Source: a virus. Taken from it: DNA of 39,791 nucleotides. The notes under the pieces are model-generated. The model saw nothing but the letters and a program-made list of their open reading frames with translations, did not search any database and was not told the origin of the DNA. Position numbers and translations under genes: made by a program. The stretch lies in IMG/VR virus record IMGVR_UViG_3300030049_000004; one strand, written 5' to 3'. Below are positions 3,811 through 39,791 of this stretch, one piece after another; position 1 is the stretch's first letter, and each line of letters begins with the position of its first letter.

Positions 3811-3829
3811 CTCCAAACTATTTTTGGAG
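3811..3829 (+). promoter_or_regulatory. Hairpin that pairs the coat-gene Shine-Dalgarno
   Basis: CTCCAAA-ctatt-TTTGGAG, 7-bp perfect stem. The 3' arm contains the GGAG that serves the GTG 3839 start. Confidence 0.45.
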
Positions 3830-3838
3830 TCTTATATC

Positions 3839-5173
3839 GTGTCTACCACACCTAATAACGTCCTACAGAACGTACAGCTATACATTAAATCCGAACTAGC
3901 TTGGCTAGATAACGAATTTTGGGGTATAGCGAATGCAAATAAATCTTTAGTAGAATTCAACGACAAGAAAGGTAACTTGGGCGATACAATCACCTTTGAT
4001 ACCACTCCACGTTACATATCTTATGATGGTTTGGTTATTACTCAACAGCCTTCAGTTCAACGTCTGCAATCTTTGATTTGCTCTCAGGCTAAAAACGTTG
4101 CCGCAGGTTACACTGATGAACAGTTCATTTTCAATATTCGTGATTATATGGATCGCTTTGGTGAAGCCGCTGCGATGGAAATTGGTACAGCAATTGAATC
4201 TGACGTGTTGTTGAATATTGTTTCTGGTGTTGTTGGTAACGATCCAAAATCACCTGAATATCAATTGTCTCAAGTTAACAGTGGGCCTTTCCGTTTCTTT
4301 GGCGATGGCGTTACACCAATCAACTCATTTACTCAATTAGCACAAGCTTGGGCTAACTTTGATGCATTCGGTGCTGCTCGTACTAAAAAACGTGGCGTAT
4401 TGCCGATTGATATCGTTCCAGCAATTGTTGGTACTGGTATGAATCAATTTTCTCCTGATCGTGCTAATGAAACTGCTGAAACTTGGAAAGTAGGTCGATT
4501 TGGCGGCATGGCAGTTGATTGGTCTGTATCCAACTTACTGCCTCTTCATGTTTCTGGAACAATTGGCGATGCTGCTGCTCCTAATAATGTGATGACAGTA
4601 GTTAGTGTTAGCGATCCAACTGGTGCAAATGTAATATCTATTACATTCCAAACCACAGGTGATAACAATGATGCCAACGCGATTAAAGCTGGCGATTTGT
4701 TTGAATTCAATGATGGTGTAAGTGGTTATCCTAACATGCGCTTTTTGACATTTGTTGGTCATAAAGTTACACGTCAAAAAGTTCAGTTCCGTGCCATTGC
4801 GAATGCTGCTACAGGTTCAGGTGGTTTGGTTACTGTTCAAATACAAACTATTAATGGTGTGGGTTTAGTATGGGCACAAAACCAAAACCAGAATTTGAAT
4901 AACACTATTCAAGCTGGTATGACTGTAACCCCTACTCCTTCTCATCAAGCTGGCTGGATGGATGCTGGTAATAGTTTCTACTTGGCAATGCCAAAACTCC
5001 CAGATAACGACCCATACAAAACTGTTTACTTCAAAGACAAAGAGTCTGGTGCCTCGCTGCGTCACTATTGGGGTGCTCAATTCGGCTTGGATAATCGCGC
5101 TTATGTTCGCGATTGTACTTGGGGCTCGACGCTCGTTGCAGAAGACTCCATGCGAATCATAATCCCCATGTAA
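3839..5173 (+). CDS. Major capsid (coat) protein, 444 aa
   Basis: GTG 3839 with GGAG 9 nt upstream (the ORF track uses TTG 3824). Largest non-fibre structural ORF, directly after scaffold. Size fits P22-type coats. Followed by a 10-bp-stem hairpin. Confidence 0.75.
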   Translation: MSTTPNNVLQNVQLYIKSELAWLDNEFWGIANANKSLVEFNDKKGNLGDTITFDTTPRYISYDGLVITQQPSVQRLQSLICSQAKNVAAGYTDEQFIFNIRDYMDRFGEAAAMEIGTAIESDVLLNIVSGVVGNDPKSPEYQLSQVNSGPFRFFGDGVTPINSFTQLAQAWANFDAFGAARTKKRGVLPIDIVPAIVGTGMNQFSPDRANETAETWKVGRFGGMAVDWSVSNLLPLHVSGTIGDAAAPNNVMTVVSVSDPTGANVISITFQTTGDNNDANAIKAGDLFEFNDGVSGYPNMRFLTFVGHKVTRQKVQFRAIANAATGSGGLVTVQIQTINGVGLVWAQNQNQNLNNTIQAGMTVTPTPSHQAGWMDAGNSFYLAMPKLPDNDPYKTVYFKDKESGASLRHYWGAQFGLDNRAYVRDCTWGSTLVAEDSMRIIIPM

Positions 5174-5184
5174 GGTCTATGTTT

Positions 5185-5221
5185 CCTGTGTTATAATGTA
5201 GCTTGTACAAAATAACACAGG
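5185..5221 (+). promoter_or_regulatory. 10-bp inverted repeat containing an extended -10 (TGtTATAAT, 5189-5197) upstream of the HNH gene
   Basis: CCTGTGTTAT-17 nt-ATAACACAGG. The 5' arm carries TGnTATAAT and the 3' arm runs into the HNH SD (AGGGG). Confidence 0.35.
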
Positions 5222-5228
5222 GGATTGA

Positions 5229-5927
5229 ATGAGTAGCTTAATATGTGCGTGTGGAAAAGAGAAGCAATCGACACAGAAAAAAATTTGTGATGATTGTCGC
5301 AAAGAGAACAAGAAAGAAAAGAACAGGCGAGATGCTAAAGCCTATCGAGAAAGGTATGGTTCAGTTGTTAAGCGCGGTATTTATTGCAGTATGTGCAAAG
5401 GCGTTAAAGAGCATCAAGAGCGAGGATATTGTTTAGCATGTGAGCGAGAAAGGTGGAAGGATAGAAATAAACCTGATTGCGCAACTTGCGGAGCAATAAA
5501 AGAAAATCCTAGGGATGCTTATTGCAATGAATGTAAACGCGAAAAAAATAGAATCAAAAGCATCGAGGAAGGTCGAAGAGAAAGAAATACACCTGGACTT
5601 GGAAGAAAAACAACTTGTTCAATATGCGGCAAAGAAAAAGAAGCAAATTATTTGAATGAAAGTTGTTGCCAAGCATGCAAGATGTTAAGAAAAAAATTAA
5701 GTCGATCAGGGCGTAATGAAGAACAGATATTAAAAGAAAATGTTAGAAGACTTACATGGATGAAAATTTCCGACGGAACTATAGTTAGGAAACCATGCGA
5801 AGTTTGTGGCACAGATAAAGATGTTGAAGCGCATCATGATGATTACAACAAACCACTTGAAGTAAGATGGCTTTGTCGTAAACATCATAGAGAGCACCAC
5901 AATAACGAAAAGAATAAGGAAACATAA
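5229..5927 (+). CDS. HNH endonuclease with four N-terminal zinc-ribbon repeats (free-standing, homing type)
   Basis: C-terminus CEVCG..EAHHDDYNKPLEVRWLCRKHHREHH is an HNH motif. The N-terminus has four CxxC-x(10-13)-CxxC units, each followed by basic KEK/RER tracts. Inserted between coat and downstream virion genes. Confidence 0.8.
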   Translation: MSSLICACGKEKQSTQKKICDDCRKENKKEKNRRDAKAYRERYGSVVKRGIYCSMCKGVKEHQERGYCLACERERWKDRNKPDCATCGAIKENPRDAYCNECKREKNRIKSIEEGRRERNTPGLGRKTTCSICGKEKEANYLNESCCQACKMLRKKLSRSGRNEEQILKENVRRLTWMKISDGTIVRKPCEVCGTDKDVEAHHDDYNKPLEVRWLCRKHHREHHNNEKNKET

Positions 5928-5929
5928 AA

Positions 5930-6727
5930 ATGGCAACCACTACACCAGTTGGACAAGAAAGCAGTATTTCCTATGGCGCGTACCCTTTTACTTATGCCAA
6001 TGGCTTACAAATTAGTTTAGATGCAACCACACCATTAACTCAGTTAGATATCAGCGCAGGTGTAACGATTGATTCTACAGATACATTTCAGATGATCAAT
6101 CCAAGCACTATTGTTATCAATGGTTTGGCAAAAGGTTTAAACGGATTGGATACTGGAACTTTAGCAGCAGCTACAGTTTATTCAGTTTATTTGATTTCCG
6201 ATCCTGTTTCACTACAGCCTATCGGTGGGATGCTTTCATTGGCAGGTCCATTATCAGCAGTTGGTCCTTTAATGCCTTTTAGCTACAGCGCATATCGCTT
6301 AATTGGCTATGTGACCACAGCTGCGGGTGCCGCAACATTTCTGCCTGGATATTGGACAGCTGGAAGCAGTGGTTTCCGCTTGTTTATGTATGATGCGCCT
6401 CTTGCCACAGCCGTTACTGCAGGCACATCAACTTCATATGCAAATGTGAATTTGTATTCAGCTGTTCCAAACATGAATAATGTTCCTGTTCTAGTTAATA
6501 GTGTATTTACACCAACAGCTGCTGGAAGTGCGTTGAATTTGCAACCGGGAAATGCTACAGGGGCAGCAAGGACAGTATTAGGTCAGGTTGCCGCTGTTGT
6601 GGTTAACAGTGTAAGTACTGTATTAGCGCAAACAGTTACTATCAGCACTATTCCTTCACCAGTTGTTAATTACAAAGTAGTTGGCTCTGTTGCGGTTAAC
6701 GTTGAAGGTTACTACTGGGCAATTTAA
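5930..6727 (+). CDS. Virion structural protein, function unknown (265 aa)
   Basis: AAGGAA SD; Thr/Ala/Val/Ser/Gly-rich, beta-type composition; lies between coat and adaptor. Confidence 0.45.
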   Translation: MATTTPVGQESSISYGAYPFTYANGLQISLDATTPLTQLDISAGVTIDSTDTFQMINPSTIVINGLAKGLNGLDTGTLAAATVYSVYLISDPVSLQPIGGMLSLAGPLSAVGPLMPFSYSAYRLIGYVTTAAGAATFLPGYWTAGSSGFRLFMYDAPLATAVTAGTSTSYANVNLYSAVPNMNNVPVLVNSVFTPTAAGSALNLQPGNATGAARTVLGQVAAVVVNSVSTVLAQTVTISTIPSPVVNYKVVGSVAVNVEGYYWAI

Positions 6728-6737
6728 GGAGTAAATC

Positions 6738-7445
6738 ATGGCTTACACAGCGTTACAGTTAATCACGCGTGCGTATTACTTGTCACAAATCGTAAGCCGT
6801 GAATTGCAGGTCGTTTCTGGCTCACAAGTCACTGACGGCCTGTATCTATTGAATGCGATTCTAGATTCTAAAGGGTCGGATTTGCGTGAGATACCTTATT
6901 ATACTGAATATTTTTTTGATACCGTACAAGGTCAAGAGCTCTATTATATCCCGGGTCTTACCTCCGTTGATTCAATGACATTCAATATTGGACCTGTTCG
7001 ATATGCCATGAATGAGGAAACCCGTGTGGGTTACTTCGGTCAATACCGTATTGACAACGTGCAATCCTTACCTTTTCAATATCGCATGGAGCGCACATTA
7101 GGCGGCATGAACGTCTATATGTATTTTGTTCCTGCTGATGTATATCAGATGAAGATTTGGGGCAAGTTTGAATTGAGTGAGGTTACTCTTCAGACTGACT
7201 TAAGTTTAAGTTTGGATTTGTATTATATAGAATTTCTTCGTCATGAATTGGCTATGTATCTCGCTAATGAATATGGTGCAACTTTACCTGATGGCGTTAT
7301 GCAGCAATATAAGATTCTTGAGAAGAAGGTTATGGATGTTAGTCCTGCAGATTTGTCTTTGCATAACTTGAATTACTTTGGGAATAGTGAAGTGGGATTG
7401 GATTGGCAAATTTTGAATCTCTCTGGCGGGTGGTTACCGTACTAA
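6738..7445 (+). CDS. Head-to-tail adaptor candidate (P22 gp4-like position)
   Basis: TAAGGAG SD. The N-terminus QLITRAYYLSQIVSRELQVVSGSQVTDGLYLLNAILD resembles the N-terminal helix pattern of P22 gp4-type adaptors, and the gene precedes the gp10-like hub. From memory only. Confidence 0.4.
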   Translation: MAYTALQLITRAYYLSQIVSRELQVVSGSQVTDGLYLLNAILDSKGSDLREIPYYTEYFFDTVQGQELYYIPGLTSVDSMTFNIGPVRYAMNEETRVGYFGQYRIDNVQSLPFQYRMERTLGGMNVYMYFVPADVYQMKIWGKFELSEVTLQTDLSLSLDLYYIEFLRHELAMYLANEYGATLPDGVMQQYKILEKKVMDVSPADLSLHNLNYFGNSEVGLDWQILNLSGGWLPY

Positions 7446-7499
7446 GAAATAGGTGGATATTTGCCATAAATAATGATATTATCTTCTTTTTAATGGCAG

Positions 7500-8168
7500 A
7501 TGATAATGTTAGAAATAATAAAGATATGTAAAAAACATGGTAAATTAACAGAAGAACTTGTTTATCGAAGTAAAGATAAGAAATATTCTTCTGGATATGC
7601 TTTGAAATGTAAAAAATGTTGTTATGAGGCCATTAGAAAACGTCCTTGTAAGGTTCATGGTGTAATATCAGATGATGATCGCGTTGAATCTGGTGGATGC
7701 AGGGTTTGTGCTCATAATAAGATGAAAAAAATGAATGATAGACGAAACAATAATCGTCCAGAATTTAATGAAAAAATGAGATTAAAGAAAGAAGCTAATC
7801 CAGAATGGTGGAAGCAGGTTAAAAAACAAGAATACGATAGATTAGTAGATCGAGTTGGCAATGATGCTCTTTGTGAGTCACAGAAAGCTAAAAAATTTGA
7901 TTTAACAATCGAAGAATTTAGAAAAATGTTTGAAGAGCAAAAGAATCTCTGTGCTATATGTAATCAGCCTGAGACTAGAATATTTACAGGTCGTGGTGCG
8001 AATGCTGGGAGGATGAAAGTGGCTAAATTATGTGTTGATCATTGTCATTCTAGTGGAAAAATTAGAGGTCTGTTATGTCATGACTGTAATACATCCATTG
8101 GCAAGATGAAGGATGACGTGGATAGGCTGCAATCAGCAATAAATTATCTTAACAAGCACAAGGACTAA
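7500..8168 (+). CDS. Endonuclease VII-type (T4 gp49-like HNH) homing endonuclease with N-terminal zinc ribbons
   Basis: CAICNQ..-x-..LCVDHCHSSGKIRGLLCHDCNTSIGKM is the Endonuclease_7 signature. Free-standing between adaptor and hub. Paralogue of 25241..25972. Confidence 0.75.
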   Translation: MIMLEIIKICKKHGKLTEELVYRSKDKKYSSGYALKCKKCCYEAIRKRPCKVHGVISDDDRVESGGCRVCAHNKMKKMNDRRNNNRPEFNEKMRLKKEANPEWWKQVKKQEYDRLVDRVGNDALCESQKAKKFDLTIEEFRKMFEEQKNLCAICNQPETRIFTGRGANAGRMKVAKLCVDHCHSSGKIRGLLCHDCNTSIGKMKDDVDRLQSAINYLNKHKD

Positions 8169-8169
8169 A

Positions 8170-9813
8170 ATGGCTTTCCCATCCCCAGCCCCAATGTCAT
8201 CTGTAAATCCGCAAGAGATACCATTACCTATGGCTGGAGGAAATACGTTTGGTCGCTATAACAAAATATCTGACTCTCAGACTTGGAATATGATTGTTTC
8301 AGATGGCGCTTTAGTAGATTATGCTGGTTATCAAAACGTATTTCCGTCGCCCTTGGTAGCGAATGGAGTGGGTCGTGGTATATATTCCAGTAATAACGGT
8401 CAGATAATGATTGCGGTGATTGGTTCGGCTGTTTATTCAATTGCTACCGATCTCGTTGCTACACCAGTTCCAAATGGAGTGCTACAAACATCTGTTGGTG
8501 ATGTATTTATATCAGAAAACAATGCATCTGAGATAGCAATCACAGATAGTTCTTTTTTGTATGTATACAATTACGCAAACAATACTTTTGAGCAATCGAT
8601 TTATAGTAATGTATCCCCGTTGCCCACGCCTGCACCAGTTGGATTTTTCTATGTTCCTTTTGTGTCACCAGGATATGTATCATTTCAATTGGGCCGACTA
8701 ATTATTGCCGATACTAGTAGTCAAAATTGGTACTTGTCTGGAATTAATGCAGCAACACAATGGGATATTAAAGATGTAAACAACCAAGCTTATTTTGGTG
8801 CATTAGATCTGAAACCAGATAAAGCGCAGGCTGCCCTACCATTTCCTGGTTCTGGTAATAGTTTGGTATTATTTGGCCGCACAGTTATGGAGTCATGGCA
8901 AAATGTTGGTAATGCTATTTTTCCATATCAAAGAGCTAGCACATTTAACGTAGATTATGGCGTATTGAATGCGTCCAGTATTGCTGCTTTAGATTCATAT
9001 ATCGTTTGGTTGTCAGCAAATGAACAAGGTGGGGCCACTTTGATGATCATAAAAGGCTCCGGTGCACGTGAAGAACCTATTTCTACCGATGGTATTGATT
9101 TTAAGTTGGCAAACATCAGTGATCCTACCAATTGCACGGGATTTCTGATGCGTCAAGACGGACATTTGCTGTATCAGTTCACTTTTCCAACTGATAATCT
9201 AAGTTATGTTTATGATTTTAACACCAAGTTATTTTTCACTGTTAGTGATGAAAATCAGAATTATCACATAGCTCGAAATACTGTATTTTTTAACAATGAC
9301 TATTATTTTGTTTCATTGAACGACGGCAATCTTTATACATTTGGCACGCAGTTTACTAACTTGCAATATTCTGCGACAAATATTCAGCAGATGCCTAGAT
9401 TCAGAATTTGTCCGCCAATACGTTTACCTAGTCAGCGAATGTTTATCTGTAAGAGTGTGGCATTTACTATTGAGAATGGACAACCTAACGTTCAAAAACA
9501 AGCTGAAGCAGATGTATTTCTGGTAACTCAGGACGGTAATTTTTTGATAACACAAAATAATAATTTTCTAGTGGGAGCTGAAACACAAACCGTCTATGGT
9601 GAAGGAACTGAATGTATTGATTTGCGAGTGTCACGTGATGGTGGCGAGACCTTCAGTAGTGCGTTACGATATCAGATGAATCCTACCGGTAAGCGCAAGA
9701 GTCGATTAATATTTCAGCGCCTTGGCCAGCAAAATGATTTAACCATTTTGATTCAGTTTATTGGATATGGACGATTTGTTGCATTCGATGGAATTGTTGA
9801 GGCATATTCATGA
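8170..9813 (+). CDS. Tail hub / packaged-DNA stabilisation protein (P22 gp10-like)
   Basis: 547 aa, AAGGA SD. The N-terminal ..GVGRGIYSSNNGQIMIAVIGSAVY.. and C-terminal ..SRDGGETFS..KRKSRLIFQRLGQ.. patterns recall P22 gp10. Position fits the P22 gene order. Confidence 0.5.
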   Translation: MAFPSPAPMSSVNPQEIPLPMAGGNTFGRYNKISDSQTWNMIVSDGALVDYAGYQNVFPSPLVANGVGRGIYSSNNGQIMIAVIGSAVYSIATDLVATPVPNGVLQTSVGDVFISENNASEIAITDSSFLYVYNYANNTFEQSIYSNVSPLPTPAPVGFFYVPFVSPGYVSFQLGRLIIADTSSQNWYLSGINAATQWDIKDVNNQAYFGALDLKPDKAQAALPFPGSGNSLVLFGRTVMESWQNVGNAIFPYQRASTFNVDYGVLNASSIAALDSYIVWLSANEQGGATLMIIKGSGAREEPISTDGIDFKLANISDPTNCTGFLMRQDGHLLYQFTFPTDNLSYVYDFNTKLFFTVSDENQNYHIARNTVFFNNDYYFVSLNDGNLYTFGTQFTNLQYSATNIQQMPRFRICPPIRLPSQRMFICKSVAFTIENGQPNVQKQAEADVFLVTQDGNFLITQNNNFLVGAETQTVYGEGTECIDLRVSRDGGETFSSALRYQMNPTGKRKSRLIFQRLGQQNDLTILIQFIGYGRFVAFDGIVEAYS

Positions 9814-10166
9814 CAGTACAACAACCCCAGCAGATACGGGTCCCCAACTTGCCACTTGGTCCGATGGTGGATGATAAGGGTAACCCCACGGCATCTGAGA
9901 TCACTTTTCGTCAAACGTTGATTAGTGGTTTACAACAGAATTTTGGCAATGAAGGATTGGTTGCACCTAGCCAACAAAATACCACATCACCAAACAATGC
10001 TGTCTTGACCATTCAGAATAATCAGGTCGTAAATCCTGCAACAGGTGAGCTACAATACACTTGCCAGGGAGGAACCCTTGTTTATGACAGCACAAACAAT
10101 AATCTATTGGTCTGTATATTGGCCTCAGATGGTACTCCAACCTTTCATATCGTGAATGTCACGTAA
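9810..10166 (+). CDS. Virion-associated hypothetical protein, 118 aa
   Basis: ATGA overlap with the hub gene; in the tail/ejection module. Confidence 0.5.
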   Translation: MTVQQPQQIRVPNLPLGPMVDDKGNPTASEITFRQTLISGLQQNFGNEGLVAPSQQNTTSPNNAVLTIQNNQVVNPATGELQYTCQGGTLVYDSTNNNLLVCILASDGTPTFHIVNVT

Positions 10167-10175
10167 GGAATTACT

Positions 10176-10796
10176 ATGTCTTGGTTAAGCAATGCATTTG
10201 GTGGGAACAAGAATCCCAATACGGAGGCCAATAATTATTTAAATCAAATACCGGGTCAGGTTAAACCATATTACGATCCTTACATTAATGCTGGAAAAGA
10301 TAGTCTTGATAAGTTAACAAAGCATTATGGGGATTTGACGGATAATCCAGGCAAAGTATTTAGTGATTTAGGCGCAGGTTATACTCAATCTCCGGGCTAT
10401 GCTGCGACTCTTAGAGAGGCGTTGGCAGGTGCTAATAATGCTGCTGCTTTAGGTGGTGGTGGTGGTTTGGGTACTGCTGGCCATCAGCAATATGCGGCTG
10501 GTGCTGCTGGGGATGTTGCCAACAAAGATTTTGAACAGTATATAAATCACATTTTGGGATTGCATACTGAAGGAGTTCAGGGGGAGCAAGGCATTGAGAA
10601 TCAAGGTTATGGAGCCAGCAAAGATTATGCTTCCATGATTGCTCAGTTGCTTAATGCTCAGGGAACGAATGCTGCTAATACCGCATCGGGGCAGAATCAG
10701 CAGCATGGGCAGAATTGGAGTAATTTGTTTAGCAGTTTGGGATCGCTTGGTTCTTGGGGCGCAAATAAATTTTTTCCTAATAATCCAGCACAATAA
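10176..10796 (+). CDS. Gly/Ala/Gln/Asn-rich internal virion (ejection-type) protein candidate
   Basis: TAAGGA SD; low-complexity GGGGG/AAGAAG tracts; position equivalent to podovirus ejection proteins. Confidence 0.45.
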   Translation: MSWLSNAFGGNKNPNTEANNYLNQIPGQVKPYYDPYINAGKDSLDKLTKHYGDLTDNPGKVFSDLGAGYTQSPGYAATLREALAGANNAAALGGGGGLGTAGHQQYAAGAAGDVANKDFEQYINHILGLHTEGVQGEQGIENQGYGASKDYASMIAQLLNAQGTNAANTASGQNQQHGQNWSNLFSSLGSLGSWGANKFFPNNPAQ

Positions 10797-10807
10797 GGAG
10801 TATAAAA

Positions 10808-11761
10808 ATGCCATTTAACATACAGCCTTTTAACTTCAAGTTGACTGGAAAAGATTTGGGTGCGTTTGATTTGGCTGATGCATTGCATAAGGGTTTCGGA
10901 AACTACAAGGGGTATGTAGAAGCGAAGAATGCTCCCCAGAAAGCCGAGGCTGAAATTCAAGAGCTTCAAGGACGTGCTCAGAAAAATTTAATGATGAGCA
11001 AGCTGCTTGAATCATTGAGTGGTGGTGGTGGAGAAGGCATGAATTTTGGCGGAGAAAATGGCAATTTAAAAGCTGCTGTCATCCAAGGTTTGACTGGTAT
11101 CAATCCTTATTTGCGCTCTCCTGAACAGCAACAAAATCTCAGAATTAAAGGCGCGACTGAGCAAGCTGCTAATAAAGCGAATCTTACAACTGGATTATCA
11201 GATGTTGCTCGTGAAGAATTGCAAAACACTGTATCCATGCCTAAAGAATACACAGGAACGGGCGCGAGCTATAATTTATTAAAAGATAGGTATGCTGCTC
11301 AAAATGGAGATGAATCAGCTAAAGAAAGACTAATTAAAGCTGCTGTAGCTGAGCGTTTAGTCCCTGAATATGCTGGCTTTCAATTGATGTCTCAAGGCCA
11401 GAGAGGTACTGTCCCTGCTCTTAAGCATCAACAAGAAGCTATTCGCCAAGGCTGGGGAAATGCTAGTCATTTAATTACCAATAACTTACCTCCTGAATTA
11501 CAAAAAGAAGTTGAGAGAAGGCATAATGAAGCGGTAAAAAATGTTAATCGGGTTAGAGAGGATTTTTTGAAAAACAATGGTCAGAGATCATCCTCTCCTA
11601 TTAAAAGTGGTCCACCATCAAAAAAATTCAAATGGTCCGATATACAACATACAGCTCAACAACGCGGCATAACTGAAAATGATGTTATTGAAAAGTTAGC
11701 CAAGAAAGCTGGTGTTAATGTTGATGAATTTATGAGTATGGTTGAGCATCAAGGAGAATAG
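10808..11761 (+). CDS. Internal virion (ejection-type) protein candidate, 317 aa
   Basis: TAAGGAG SD; helical, charged; position. Confidence 0.45.
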   Translation: MPFNIQPFNFKLTGKDLGAFDLADALHKGFGNYKGYVEAKNAPQKAEAEIQELQGRAQKNLMMSKLLESLSGGGGEGMNFGGENGNLKAAVIQGLTGINPYLRSPEQQQNLRIKGATEQAANKANLTTGLSDVAREELQNTVSMPKEYTGTGASYNLLKDRYAAQNGDESAKERLIKAAVAERLVPEYAGFQLMSQGQRGTVPALKHQQEAIRQGWGNASHLITNNLPPELQKEVERRHNEAVKNVNRVREDFLKNNGQRSSSPIKSGPPSKKFKWSDIQHTAQQRGITENDVIEKLAKKAGVNVDEFMSMVEHQGE

Positions 11762-11762
11762 T

Positions 11763-12848
11763 ATGGCTATTGATTTATTGGCGGATGAAGATCAACAATC
11801 AGGCCCTATTGATTTGCTTGCTCATGAAGGCCCTATTGCGCCCAAACAACCCGAACAAACCTTTGGTACAAAACTGCCTATTAATGTTAAAGCAGGACTG
11901 GCTAATGCTTTTACAGGATTAGCCAATATACCATATGAATTGGGTAAAGTTGTATCTACAACTAATTTTGGAAGGTTATTGGGTGGTAAGTTCTATCCAA
12001 GTCCAGAAGAAGTTCAACAAAGACAGAAAACTGCTGAAATGATCCCACATTTTGGCGAGCATGATTTTGGTAAAGAATTAGGCTTAACTGGACAGCCGAC
12101 ATTAAGTGACAAAGCCATTCAATTAGGAACTGAATTTGCAGTGCCTTTAGGTTATGGAATAAAAGGCCTAAAAACAGCTATAAAAGCCATTCCTGCTATA
12201 ACTACAAAAGGCATAAGCAAGGAAGTATTAGCAGCAAATGATTTAGCAAAGCAAAAATATGGAAAACTTTATAATAAATTATTTCAAGAAGCAGAAACCA
12301 AAGGCATAAAAAACCTCGAAAAGCCTAAGATTAATTTTTCTTTGATTGAAAAAAATTCTTTACCAAAATATCATACAGCATTAAAAGAATTCAAAATCAA
12401 TCCTACCGTTGAAAATGCTCATAAAGCTCAAAGTGACTTAGGAAAATTACAGCGAGCCATGGAAAAATCAAACACGGTCAATCCTTTAACATCTAGTCAA
12501 CATAAGACTTATCGAGAAATTGTAGATGCTAAAAATAAGATCAAAGAATCCATGTTTAAAGGCCATCCTGAGCTTTCTGAGCGATACAACAAGATAACTC
12601 ATGGATATAAATCTGATGTAATCCCATACTCAACAAATAAAGCGTTGAATTTATATAAAAATGGCGAACTAACTGAAAAGAAATTATTGCAAAGATTAAA
12701 AAATAATGATGCCTTTATGTTATCTGTTGGCAAAGAACATCCTGGAATAAAAATAAATCAAGCATTAAAAAGCAAAATAGCAAAGAAGGCTATAGGGTCG
12801 GTTTTGACTGGCGTTGGGTTTAAAAAAGGATGGGATATCACACACTAA
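11763..12848 (+). CDS. Internal virion (ejection-type) protein candidate, 361 aa
   Basis: ATG 11763 with AAGGAG 6 nt upstream (the ORF-track TTG 11742 start lies inside the previous gene). Lys-rich C-terminal half. Confidence 0.45.
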   Translation: MAIDLLADEDQQSGPIDLLAHEGPIAPKQPEQTFGTKLPINVKAGLANAFTGLANIPYELGKVVSTTNFGRLLGGKFYPSPEEVQQRQKTAEMIPHFGEHDFGKELGLTGQPTLSDKAIQLGTEFAVPLGYGIKGLKTAIKAIPAITTKGISKEVLAANDLAKQKYGKLYNKLFQEAETKGIKNLEKPKINFSLIEKNSLPKYHTALKEFKINPTVENAHKAQSDLGKLQRAMEKSNTVNPLTSSQHKTYREIVDAKNKIKESMFKGHPELSERYNKITHGYKSDVIPYSTNKALNLYKNGELTEKKLLQRLKNNDAFMLSVGKEHPGIKINQALKSKIAKKAIGSVLTGVGFKKGWDITH

Positions 12849-12913
12849 CAATCGCAATTACAATCACACATTAATGACAAACCAAATAAAATTAAAATAA
12901 TACTGCAAATCAT
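12845..12913 (-). CDS. Tiny hydrophobic, Cys-rich peptide, 22 aa (MICSIILILFGLSLMCDCNCDC)
   Basis: Hand translation of the minus strand: GGAG 6 nt upstream of the ATG, one hydrophobic helix, then CDCNCDC. Antisense to the late operon. Confidence 0.3.
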   Translation of the reverse strand: MICSIILILFGLSLMCDCNCDC

Positions 12914-13047
12914 AATAGACTCCAAAAAACAAAACAAAATCTGACAAGGATGTCAAATCACCTACAAATTCTTACCCGTTAAGCAGCCCTTCATGAAAGT
13001 AAATTCTGTATTAATCGCATTGATTCTTTGAATCATCTCGTAAATAA

Positions 13048-13128
13048 TTAACTAGTAGCCCAATGTAAAATAGCTCCGCAAATCAATATAAATGCAATTT
13101 CAAGAATCATAACCATCCCCACATGCAT
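13048..13128 (-). CDS. Tiny hydrophobic peptide, 20-26 aa (..MILEIAFILICGAILHWATS)
   Basis: Minus-strand ORF with three in-frame ATGs (13128, 13116, 13110). The GGGGA SD for ATG 13110 lies in the 3' arm of the 13115-13150 hairpin. Confidence 0.25.
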   Translation of the reverse strand: MHVGMVMILEIAFILICGAILHWATS

Positions 13129-13150
13129 AAAATTAAAACTCAGTGGGGAT
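13115..13150. other. 8-bp GC-rich inverted repeat (ATCCCCAC-20 nt-GTGGGGAT)
   Basis: Perfect arms at 13115-13122 and 13143-13150. Could terminate the plus-strand late transcript and/or occlude the minus-strand peptide start region. Confidence 0.4.
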
Positions 13151-13202
13151 ATTATTGCATATTGTATTACACGGTGTAAAGAGTTAATCAAAATATATCT
13201 AC

Positions 13203-13230
13203 TTGAATAAATCATCAAAAAGCGTATGAT
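13203..13230 (+). promoter_or_regulatory. Candidate sigma70 promoter for the fibre cluster (TTGAAT-16-TATGAT)
   Basis: -35 at 13203-13208 and -10 at 13225-13230, 30 nt upstream of ATG 13260. Confidence 0.4.
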
Positions 13231-13259
13231 TTAATCCATTAGTTCAATGTGGATGAACC

Positions 13260-14981
13260 ATGTCTCTTCCAAGTAATTCTTATTACCCTTTGTTTCCCAT
13301 ACAAGAAACCATATTTGATTCTATAACAGGATTGGCATTGGCAGACGGTTCAGTCTATTTCTACCGACAAAATGCACCATCCGTTATGAAAGATGTGTAT
13401 CAAAGAACATTAAATCCTGACAACACATTTACTTATGCTGTCTTGCCTAATCCATTGGTATTGTCGGCCATTGGTACATTTGTAGATGATAATGGCAATA
13501 ATATTATTCCATTTTTATGGCCCTTTGTTGGTTCTCCATCTGCAACCCCACCGTCTACAGATGTAGATTTGTATTATATAGCGGTAGTCGCATCCGGTGG
13601 CTCAGAAGATTCTCCAGAATTCACGGTAGATGCATGGCCTCCAGAAGTATCAGGTGGTTCATCCACATCTGACAACTTCATTAGTTCAGATAATGTTATA
13701 TCCAATCCGCAATTTGCAGTTATCAACTATCCATCTCCTTACACATTTACTGTGTCTGGAACGGCTACTAATCAGATTGCACCGGATTGGAATATTATTA
13801 CTACAGGAGCTGGAACGGTAACTATTAATCAAGTTGCAGTTACCGATACAGCAGTTCCAGGATTGCCTGCGTTTGCTTTAAATATTACCTCTAGTGGAAT
13901 AACGGCATTATTGCTCAGTCAAACGATTGCAATGAGCCCACGTATTCTTGAAAATGGATATGCATCAGGTACATTCGTTGTCGAATCCCAAACTTCTTTG
14001 TCACCTACTATTACCATGAACTTTGTGCCTTCCAATCCTGCATTAACATCATTGGAAGTTGTATCTGGCAGTGCGGTTGAAGGAGGTTATACCGCATATT
14101 ATGGCAACGTGGATTTATCAAGTTTAACAAAGAATCCTGATTCTGGTTCAGTTGGATATGTAAACATACAGATATCTATTCCTGTCAGTGCAAATATCAA
14201 TATTAGTTGCATTCAATTATTGTCCGTTCCAGATGATGCGACACTTCCAGTTTATATTCAGGAAACTACGCCAAGACAAATTGATCATCTTTATCATGAT
14301 GCTTATCCTATCGTTCCCGTGGGAACTGTGATTGATTTTGGTGGATTTGCAGCCCCTGCGCATTACTTGTTAGGCAATGGAGCTGCTTATAGTCGGGTTA
14401 CATATAATCAATTATATCGAGCTATGACACTGATTCAGTCGATAACTGAATTGTCTACAACAACATTCACAGTTACTAGCGCGGCGCAACTTGGTTTAGG
14501 TATGTTTGTTGAAGGAACTGGAATTCTGGTTGGAACTTATATTACTGACATTTCTGGAACTACAATTACTGTCAATCAAGCCACCACATCGACAGGAACT
14601 TTTTCAGCTACTTTTTATGCTGCTGGACAAGGCGATGGCTCTACGACTTTCAATGTTTATAATCTTGCGGGAATAGTAATTGCCGGAGCTGGTGGAAATC
14701 TGATAGCTTTATCTCCATTGCTTGATACTCTCGGGCAGTCGGGTGGAGCTTCAACAGCAACGTTAGCTATCAACAATATGCCTGCCCATAATCATTCCAC
14801 ACCAACAGCATCTACAGCGCCTATTTCTTCATTAGGGATATCTGGGCCGTCTGCTGGATCTAGCATGTTTATGGTTGCTGGGGGAAGTACAACTGTTTCT
14901 GTTGGATCACAAGGATCAGGAACTCCTTTTGGTATCGTTCAAGCAACAACAATTTTATATAAATATATCCGATACGAATAA
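13260..14981 (+). CDS. Tail fibre protein with C-terminal tail-collar-type domain
   Basis: 573 aa. The C-terminus ..YNLAGIVIAGAGGN..GGASTATLAINNMPAHNHS.. matches the phage tail-collar signature (..G.GG...L....MP.H.H). Confidence 0.7.
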   Translation: MSLPSNSYYPLFPIQETIFDSITGLALADGSVYFYRQNAPSVMKDVYQRTLNPDNTFTYAVLPNPLVLSAIGTFVDDNGNNIIPFLWPFVGSPSATPPSTDVDLYYIAVVASGGSEDSPEFTVDAWPPEVSGGSSTSDNFISSDNVISNPQFAVINYPSPYTFTVSGTATNQIAPDWNIITTGAGTVTINQVAVTDTAVPGLPAFALNITSSGITALLLSQTIAMSPRILENGYASGTFVVESQTSLSPTITMNFVPSNPALTSLEVVSGSAVEGGYTAYYGNVDLSSLTKNPDSGSVGYVNIQISIPVSANINISCIQLLSVPDDATLPVYIQETTPRQIDHLYHDAYPIVPVGTVIDFGGFAAPAHYLLGNGAAYSRVTYNQLYRAMTLIQSITELSTTTFTVTSAAQLGLGMFVEGTGILVGTYITDISGTTITVNQATTSTGTFSATFYAAGQGDGSTTFNVYNLAGIVIAGAGGNLIALSPLLDTLGQSGGASTATLAINNMPAHNHSTPTASTAPISSLGISGPSAGSSMFMVAGGSTTVSVGSQGSGTPFGIVQATTILYKYIRYE

Positions 14982-35073: not shown

Positions 35074-35099
35074 TTAAAACTCCTGTTGGTTATGCCTGT

Positions 35100-35128
35100 A
35101 TTATATTACATCGTGCAATGAATTGCAA
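35100..35128 (-). promoter_or_regulatory. Consensus sigma70 early promoter (TTGCAA-17-TATAAT), internal copy
   Basis: Minus strand: TTGCAA (35128-35123), ttcattgcacgatgtaa, TATAAT (35105-35100). Lies in the 3' end of ORF 35101..35316. Confidence 0.65.
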
Positions 35129-35674: not shown

Positions 35675-35707
35675 TTTTAACTCCTGTTATGTTGTTTTGA
35701 TGTGGTA

Positions 35708-35736
35708 ATTATATTGCACGGCGTAATGAATTGCAA
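35708..35736 (-). promoter_or_regulatory. Consensus sigma70 early promoter (TTGCAA-17-TATAAT), leftmost-operon start
   Basis: Minus strand: TTGCAA (35736-35731), ttcattacgccgtgcaa, TATAAT (35713-35708). About 34 nt upstream of GTG 35674. Confidence 0.65.
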
Positions 35737-35891
35737 GGGATTGATGAGGAATATGAGTTTTTTGTAGTGAATTGCTGTGGTAAAGATGTGTGCAGCACCT
35801 CTTTAGTCCTGTTGATTGCCTGTGGACAGGGGTTGTGATACCATCGTTCACAGTTACACACAGCTTTATCAACAGTTCTTGTGGATTAATA

Positions 35892-39395: not shown

Positions 39396-39791
39396 AGAAT
39401 ATTATAGCATCGAGAATCTCTCACGCATCAAACGCAATATCGCTACATCTTATTTGTACTTTGAAGACAATTACAAGCGGTTTAGAGACTTTCGCAGGTT
39501 TGTGTTTTGTGAATCGGTCACTGAAGACCAGCGTTCCATGCTTCGTAGACTTAATCGACCGGCTACGGAATTCAACATTTTAGAGGCGTTTATTAGTCGA
39601 TTGCTGGGTGAGTTCAGCAAGCAAGAGCCATCGATTGTTGTATCACCAGCTGAGGACGCGCCAATACCCGACGAACTATTAAAGCTTATTGAAAATAACA
39701 TACGTCACGTCATGTATGACGCTAACAAAAACTCATTTGCTTATGAGATTTACAAAGACTTGTTGTCTGGTGGATTCTCAGTCGGCAAGGT
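39382..39791 (+). CDS. Portal protein, 5' portion (3'-partial at window end; continues at nt 128 via the overlap)
   Basis: ATG 39382 (ATGGCGGACAATAA overlaps the terL stop). MADNKEYYSIENLSRIKRNIATSYLYFEDNYKRFRDFRRFVF.. runs in frame into the 127-bp repeat. Confidence 0.8.
   Translation, partial: MADNKEYYSIENLSRIKRNIATSYLYFEDNYKRFRDFRRFVFCESVTEDQRSMLRRLNRPATEFNILEAFISRLLGEFSKQEPSIVVSPAEDAPIPDELLKLIENNIRHVMYDANKNSFAYEIYKDLLSGGFSVGK
39665..39791. repeat. Terminal direct repeat copy 2 (equals 1-127)
   Basis: 127/127 identical to the window start. Confidence 0.97.

Follow-up and report, generated by a model that had tools for sequence, protein, structure and literature searches.

A candidate moron-type cassette with a conserved promoter, an inverted-repeat leader and exchangeable small membrane-protein cargo at the ejection/tail-fibre junction of a P22-like podophage

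Lambdoid morons (e.g., HK97 gp15 and lambda bor and lom) are extra genes that lie between two genes adjacent in relatives, carry their own promoter and terminator, deviate in base composition and encode envelope proteins. In phage P22, the slot between ejection gene 16 and tailspike gene 9 holds sieA and immI (PMC8022706); SieA blocks DNA entry, with escape mutations mapping to gp16 and gp20 (PMC10883804), and the slot is highly variable among P22 relatives (PMC8022706, PMC10883804). At the corresponding junction between injection gene and tailspike in the P22-like Salmonella prophage BTP1, a 786-nucleotide (nt) leftward antisense transcript, STnc6030, excludes BTP1 and has been classed as non-coding, with no open reading frame (ORF) above 60 amino acids (aa) (PMC7067206). 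Here, we analyze the 411-nt gap (12849-13259) between the last ejection-protein-like virion gene, which encodes 368 aa, and the first tail-fibre gene in IMG/VR virus record IMGVR_UViG_3300030049_000004 (39,791 nt; this whole stretch is called the window), and we describe on its minus strand a cassette composed of a promoter, an inverted-repeat leader and a predicted gene for a 20-aa hydrophobic peptide, pep3.

The reading that we favor, at slightly better than even confidence, is that this island represents a moron-type accessory cassette in the ejection/tail-fibre variable slot of a P22-like podophage, expressed independently and acting at the inner membrane. A conserved host-type promoter (13151-13180, minus strand) would start a transcript of approximately 220 nt at about 13144, which would encode the membrane peptide pep3, cross the stump of a second gene (pep2) and end at the terminator hairpin of that stump gene. 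The peptide would thus be made independently of the late operon and would act at the inner membrane, with the exclusion of superinfecting relatives as its leading candidate activity.

Seven loci, in independent metagenomic or viral contigs, were found to carry the cassette, i.e., the window, L001, L045, L053, L066, L064/L069 and L016/L063. L001 was recovered by a protein search with the 368-aa gene (58% identity), while L016/L063, L045, L064/L069 and L066 were recovered by searching for exact patterns that cover the 15-16 best-conserved nt of the leader; L053, from a 38.9-kb contig, was added by a profile of a 78-90-aa protein described below. Most 15-mer and pattern matches were due to chance, for example those in a conserved gut-bacterial gene. 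Neighboring virion proteins are 21-65% identical across the cassette loci (the L064 coat protein is 65% identical to the window coat protein), and the ejection-like proteins fall into two subfamilies that are just 21-23% identical to one another, which indicates that this set of loci is deeply diverged. We consider it very likely that the cassette is real and homologous across these relatives.

Read in the direction of transcription, the cassette consists of a -35 element (TTGCGC, TTGCAA or TTTACA), a 17-18-nt spacer, a TG-extended -10 element, the motif CCCC-A-C and a loop of approximately 20 nt that starts with CTGAGTT; the loop is followed by GTGGGGAT and, 5-7 nt further downstream, by an ATG. 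In the window, the predicted σ70-type promoter (13151-13180, minus strand; TTTACA, 18 nt, TG-n-AATAAT) shows a 10/12 match and has the extended -10, and the conserved promoter geometry places the predicted transcription start at 13144 (minus strand), the invariant A in CCCC-A-C, 7 nt past the -10 (13151-13156). Invariant columns among the seven diverged loci are the TT of the -35, the TG, positions A2 and T6 of the -10, CAC, and the G-run serving as the Shine-Dalgarno (SD) sequence. In six of the seven loci, the SD of the leader (leader positions 13116-13122 in the window) has a GGA motif, and its spacing geometry relative to the ATG is kept in all of them.

What follows the ATG differs among loci, including a 20-codon ORF in the window, 21-codon ORFs in L001 and L066, a 25-codon ORF in L045, a 45-codon ORF behind a diverged leader in L053, a 71-aa two-helix protein in L064/L069, and an 87-aa protein with an N-terminal helix and a coiled coil in L016/L063; every one of these cargos has at least one hydrophobic helix. 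Conservation of the leader in front of differing membrane cargos indicates that the unit behaves like a portable cassette for expression, behind which one small membrane-protein cargo can replace another. With regard to location, homologues of the 368-aa gene in L001, L045, L053 and L066 each carry the cassette at their 3' end, and throughout the set the cassette stands at the 3' end of the last ejection-like gene and is oriented towards it, with one gene in between in L063 and directly elsewhere. In L001, L063 and L064/L069, compared with 3824-12848 of the window, the whole gp10-to-ejection block is inverted relative to the coat-to-EndoVII block, and two late operons converge on the cassette in these relatives; the cassette remains tied to the ejection gene across this inversion in L001, L063 and L064, which argues for linkage to that gene.

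The first-pass annotation of the window had described the gap as AT-rich, free of plus-strand ORFs and endowed with three minus-strand mini-ORFs that encode tiny hydrophobic peptides. The gap indeed contains no plus-strand ORF of at least 30 aa, and its GC content is 30.2% vs. 40.0% for the genome; the last 600 nt of the upstream 368-aa gene are equally AT-rich. While all three mini-ORFs exist, the description as a set of hydrophobic peptides holds for the third ORF (pep3), which is conserved; the second (pep2) is a non-hydrophobic gene fragment and the first (pep1) has no counterpart.

pep3 (13048-13110, minus strand; stop codon at 13048-13050) is the conserved single-helix cargo, identified as such by the shared leader and the SD-to-ATG spacing, and its counterparts are the 20-25-codon hydrophobic ORFs of L001, L045 and L066 as well as the 45-codon version in L053. 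Its mean hydropathy is 2.35 over the first 16 residues and, at 20 aa, it falls under the 60-aa size limit for type I toxins. It is colinear with the L001 peptide; the two differ by a single codon in length and share an acidic residue at position 4/5, Gly at 12/13 and an aromatic side chain at 17/18. When the nucleotides of each locus were shuffled, an open and equally hydrophobic 16-codon frame was found in 0.3-4% of shuffles (joint P 0.003-0.04 per locus); for the peptide ORFs, the combined Fisher P is ~6e-6, a value that treats the loci as independent and ignores shared ancestry. In L001, L045 and L066, the peptide frame stops 4-12 nt from the stop of the convergent gene. pep3 probably is a translated micro-protein. 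Membership in the SieA family was considered and rejected, as neither any of the peptides nor the 45- and 71-aa cargos matched a Pfam family at E up to 10, and as their sizes are incompatible with a multi-pass protein of ~160 aa.

Around the predicted start lies an inverted repeat (13109-13155, minus strand), the 5' arm of which comprises the -10 and the discriminator, while the 3' arm comprises the SD (13116-13120) and the start codon. Its perfect 8-bp core (13115-13122 / 13143-13150) had already been recognized as holding the SD and start of the third ORF, an observation that we confirm. The repeat is present in all seven loci, and the window has one copy of it; the stem reaches, in several loci, over the -10 hexamer on one side and over the start codon on the other, and L053 retains the pairing although both arms have changed in sequence (TAACAT with ATGTTG, and CTCGCA with TGCGGAG). 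The stem would form only when the 5' arm is transcribed, at -15.5 kcal/mol in the window and between -16 and -24 kcal/mol in L001, L045, L064 and L066. The predicted start at 13144 falls downstream of the 5' arm, however, and across the seven loci the SD is then not systematically paired. With a start at this position within the repeat, RNA made from the cassette promoter itself should be translatable, and only transcripts arriving from upstream would hide the ribosome site.

A design of this type is found in the IS10 transposase gene, where transcription starts inside an inverted repeat with a ribosome site in its 3' arm, and where "fold-back inhibition" silences only read-through transcripts. 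We propose that, in the cassette, pairing of the -10 and discriminator with the SD and start codon may likewise serve as a gate on read-through RNA, such that own-promoter transcripts would be open to ribosomes while transcripts entering from upstream would fold back and occlude the ribosome site. Such a gate makes sense in L063 and L064 in particular, because the cassette and its hairpin lie directly downstream of the coat-to-EndoVII operon in these two relatives.

Two other identities for the conserved element were tried and rejected. A multi-copy phage-polymerase promoter was ruled out since the leader motif and its covariance model each occur in one copy in the window. A shared repressor operator was rejected as the palindrome at 13167-13179 is no commoner than expected by chance (3 occurrences vs. 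2.7) and look-alikes lie in differing promoter positions. Separately, L001 (~5110-5150), L045 (~1225-1265) and L066 (~330-370) have an opposite-strand promoter-like site whose -35 falls within the loop of the hairpin and whose -10 overlaps that of the cassette; this site points away from the peptide, and the window copy has a poor -35. The conserved element may hence represent a back-to-back promoter pair. Genes that diverge from the cassette include an XhlA/holin-like 56-aa gene in L016 (751-921, plus strand; Pfam XhlA E 9e-5) and, in L001 (5229-5598, plus strand), genes for a 58-aa signal-peptide protein and a 96-aa protein with a coiled coil and a C-terminal helix; the slot is thus one that gathers several small proteins predicted to reside in the envelope.

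Downstream of pep3 the island carries the remains of another gene. pep2 (12962-13036, minus strand) is a 5'-truncated stump that corresponds to the last 24 codons of a 78-90-aa gene encoding a transmembrane segment and a coiled coil; 22 of its 24 aa match the C-terminal residues of the 87-aa ORF in L016/L063, and it carries the family's invariant C-terminal motif INTEFTFMKGW..GKN, with the W changed to C. Besides these 24 codons, about 5 codons upstream of them remain in the window, and the N-terminal helix and coiled coil are gone. Codon differences from the 87-aa ORF include 14 synonymous and 2 replacement differences (one of the latter at the invariant W), which suggests that truncation was recent relative to the divergence of the two sequences. 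The DNA of the window and L063 aligns in two homology blocks, one from the promoter and leader to ATGATT (79%) and one covering the 3' end of the gene and the hairpin (76%), between which there are 68 unrelated nt in the window vs. 183 nt in L063. We thus conclude, with high confidence from these alignments, that pep2 represents a gene stump rather than a peptide gene, and the alternative view of the island as a recombination scar is borne out for part of it, which this comparison identifies as a recombination or deletion scar. A derivation of pep3 itself from the N-terminus of the 87-aa gene by internal deletion was tested against the same alignment and rejected: there is no DNA homology between the two blocks, and pep3 is colinear with the L001 peptide.

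The stump retains an intrinsic-terminator-like hairpin (12938-12959) with a U-run (12921-12959 in total, minus strand), consistent with the earlier report of a stem at 12942-12955 followed by a minus-strand U-run. This element was inherited with the stump and is the predicted end of the pep3 transcript. Its core of 15 nt is identical to that of L063, and the outer pairs covary (U:A and U.G to C:G), with hairpin energies of -8.7 and -12.7 kcal/mol in the window/L063 comparison; the wobble pair in the stem fits a minus-strand RNA.

The family from which pep2 derives (alignment A2) consists of uncharacterized phage proteins of 78-90 aa with an N-terminal helix, a coiled coil and the invariant C-terminal motif. 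Members were found in L016 (369-632, minus strand), L045 (906-1178, minus strand) and L053 (4989-5225, plus strand) as well as in P0002-P0004, in either orientation and at varied spots near the junction. For the 87-aa family, hints of a lysis protein are weak, including Rz-like (E 0.011) and XhlA-like (0.048) matches in Pfam and PHROG and a Mu releasin-like match (0.89) in Atlas.

Among eight more distant relatives examined, five (L056, L057, L059, L091 and L092) do not have the island and show the next long ORF directly after the homologous gene; relative to several more distant relatives, the island thus is an indel. The island's absence from the junction in these relatives, its promoter and terminator and its deviant base composition agree with the classical description of a moron. 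Cultured phages in GenBank yielded no match, either by blastn of the region or by tblastn of the coat protein and of the 78-aa protein, and a scan of a genome collection with the leader pattern yielded one chance match, in an archaeal metagenome-assembled genome, and no prophage or host.

A number of observations weigh against the interpretation of the island as an independently expressed accessory cassette. The peptides share few residues beyond hydrophobicity (mean column identity 28%), and a T-rich strand is one that favors hydrophobic codons. L063 and L053 have weak versions of the hairpin (z -0.8 and -0.9), the covariation comes from a single diverged locus, and a transcription start further upstream than the predicted 13144 would put the hairpin in every transcript. 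Finally, neither an integrase nor a CI-type repressor was seen among the proteins scanned, which are a subset of the window ORFs; a prophage-expressed role is therefore unsupported, and expression would be early.

An exclusion function had previously been listed among the alternatives for this locus. The part of that proposal that concerns location stands, as P22-like phages have sieA/immI in this slot (PMC8022706), and the exclusion role itself is suggested by this position. Considering position, linkage to the ejection gene and membrane localization, we put forward only tentatively that pep3 acts in superinfection exclusion. Broader, and in our view unlikely, is the proposal that a portable promoter and fold-back leader, tied to the ejection gene even across an inversion, license translation of exchangeable tiny membrane proteins from the cassette promoter only, with the 20-25-aa peptides as a new class of micro-proteins that block DNA entry by related phages.

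Likewise unlikely is the explanation that the island is a decaying, functionless remnant, with the conserved sequence acting as a compact bidirectional promoter or as an RNA-end hairpin for neighboring genes and the short ORFs left over from deleted cargo. pep2 is certainly a stump, the opposite-strand promoter-like site overlaps the leader in L001, L045 and L066, the hairpin stands just past the coat-to-EndoVII operon in L064 and L063, and hydrophobic ORFs are not rare on a T-rich strand, all of which would fit decay. Non-functional DNA of this size would, however, be expected to be lost or interrupted; instead, four strongly divergent lineages have retained an open hydrophobic frame of 60-75 nt that has its SD and ATG at the proper distance and, in three of the four, ends within about 12 nt of the stop of the convergent gene.

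It is also conceivable, though rather improbable, that the functional product is an RNA, i.e., a leftward antisense transcript that pairs with late mRNA at the ejection/fibre junction and thereby modulates or excludes the late genes of incoming relatives. Position and orientation match those of STnc6030 (PMC7067206), the peptide sequences are poorly conserved, and in L001, L045 and L066 no terminator lies between the peptide stop and the ejection gene, so that a transcript would run antisense into the 3' end of that gene. By contrast, the window transcript should stop at the terminator (12921-12959), approximately 75 nt short of the ejection gene. Conservation of the SD-to-ATG geometry in all loci also speaks against an RNA product, as does the presence of the same leader at the head of the 71- and 87-aa ORFs, which marks it as a translation start.

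The first-pass annotation had given precedence to a type I toxin locus with an SD-occluding leader, i.e., a module in which one or more hydrophobic peptides depolarize the membrane and are held off by that leader and an antisense RNA. Peptides of the Ibs or TisB class of type I toxins resemble those encoded here in size and hydrophobicity, the inverted repeat does cover the SD, and the late-operon message is antisense to the whole cassette. Promoter-like sites in antisense orientation were found in three of the five peptide loci (window, L001 and L045), 25-65 nt past the peptide stop, but at non-homologous positions and at near-background density, and they are absent in L066 and L053. No conserved antisense promoter was found, and there was no antitoxin RNA or other match in Rfam and no toxin family in Pfam. 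The lead interpretation is not supported by the leader: the start predicted at 13144 omits the 5' arm and would leave the SD free, and a start inside the repeat would make for a design opposite to the closed primary transcript of type I toxins. As, furthermore, the shared leader drives ordinary small membrane proteins and the three supposed "toxins" include a gene stump and an unsupported ORF, we consider a type I module very improbable and conclude that the cassette probably is not a toxin-antitoxin pair.

The window is a complete assembly of the circular type (39,664 bp), with an exact terminal repeat of 127 nt (1-127 = 39665-39791). Its rightward virion block encodes, in this order, portal and coat proteins, a gp10-type "Hc3" stabilization protein, a PHROG "DNA ejection" protein, two more virion proteins and tail-fibre proteins, and this virion module is, as predicted from its genes, of the P22 type. 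The 368-aa gene (11742-12848, plus strand) is the last ejection-protein-like virion gene, downstream of the gp10-type Hc3 gene and the PHROG "DNA ejection" gene, and the right border of the island is a tail-fibre gene (13260-14981, plus strand) that matches PHROG tail and tail-fibre families and the Pfam Collar domain. Ahead of this gene, a rightward promoter (TTGAAT-16-TATGAT, 13203-13230, plus strand) had been proposed; the site is present, but it is a 9/12 match of a kind that occurs at background frequency (11 such matches in the region vs. 8.2 +/- 3.3 in shuffles). Elsewhere in the window, two near-consensus minus-strand promoters (TTGCAA, 17 nt, TATAAT; 35085-35125 and 35700-35740) lie inside a 55-nt direct repeat (family D8), and each precedes a small leftward gene.

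The remaining mini-ORF, pep1 (12845-12913, minus strand), encodes 22 codons with a hydrophobic stretch and a Cys-rich tail. A GGAG does stand 6 nt before its ATG, as previously described. The ORF lies downstream of the terminator, no promoter was found for it, and it has no homologue in any relative examined; its hydrophobicity is within expectation for a sequence with 56% T (P 0.10). Right after the stop of the 368-aa gene, at 12849-12871, there is an imperfect hexamer repeat (TGY-RAT on the minus strand) of three and a half units, which accounts for the Cys-Asp/Asn tail. pep1 is unsupported as a gene and most likely is a chance ORF.

Should the broad proposal of a new micro-protein class be true, exclusion transcripts regarded as "non-coding", STnc6030 among them, may exert their effect through micro-peptides that have escaped annotation. 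The slot between ejection and tailspike genes houses anti-superinfection functions in P22-like phages, and most of its contents, notably ORFs of fewer than 30 codons, are never annotated; here, a putative micro-peptide gene and its expression signals have been kept across very divergent uncultured phages. These signals appear to form a reusable cassette with a start-inside-hairpin design, which provides a testable model for membrane-active accessory proteins expressed apart from the late operon. The locus also calls for caution, as a short hydrophobic ORF with a nearby hairpin is not always a type I toxin and gene stumps can be misread as peptides.

Compared with known systems, the cassette resembles the type I toxins of Ibs/Sib, TisB/IstR and Hok/Sok in that pep3 is a tiny hydrophobic peptide of one helix whose SD lies in a structured region, but differs from them in that neither an antitoxin RNA nor a family match was found and in that the predicted start excludes the occluding arm. 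With IS10 transposase it would share a start within an inverted repeat whose 3' arm carries the ribosome site; IS10 is, however, a transposon rather than a phage accessory gene, and the cassette's design is read from sequence alone. Like STnc6030, the cassette would give rise to a leftward RNA that has its start between the injection gene and tailspike position of a P22-like phage and contains only small ORFs; by contrast, STnc6030 overlaps both flanking genes and is read as antisense RNA, whereas the cassette unit of approximately 220 nt is predicted to end short of the ejection gene and shows a clear translation start. sieA and immI of P22 share with the cassette a late-operon slot by the last ejection gene, a promoter of their own, an orientation against the late message and a membrane protein product; however, SieA has 162-164 aa and three helices, while the peptides described here match no Pfam family, and P22 mnt, arc and ant have no equivalent here, with no sign of lysogeny seen among the scanned proteins. 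Lambdoid morons, finally, have in common with the cassette the type of insertion site, a promoter and terminator of their own, a deviant composition and an envelope product, while the cassette is set apart from them by a cargo of 20 aa and by a conserved, portable promoter and leader behind which the cargo has been exchanged.

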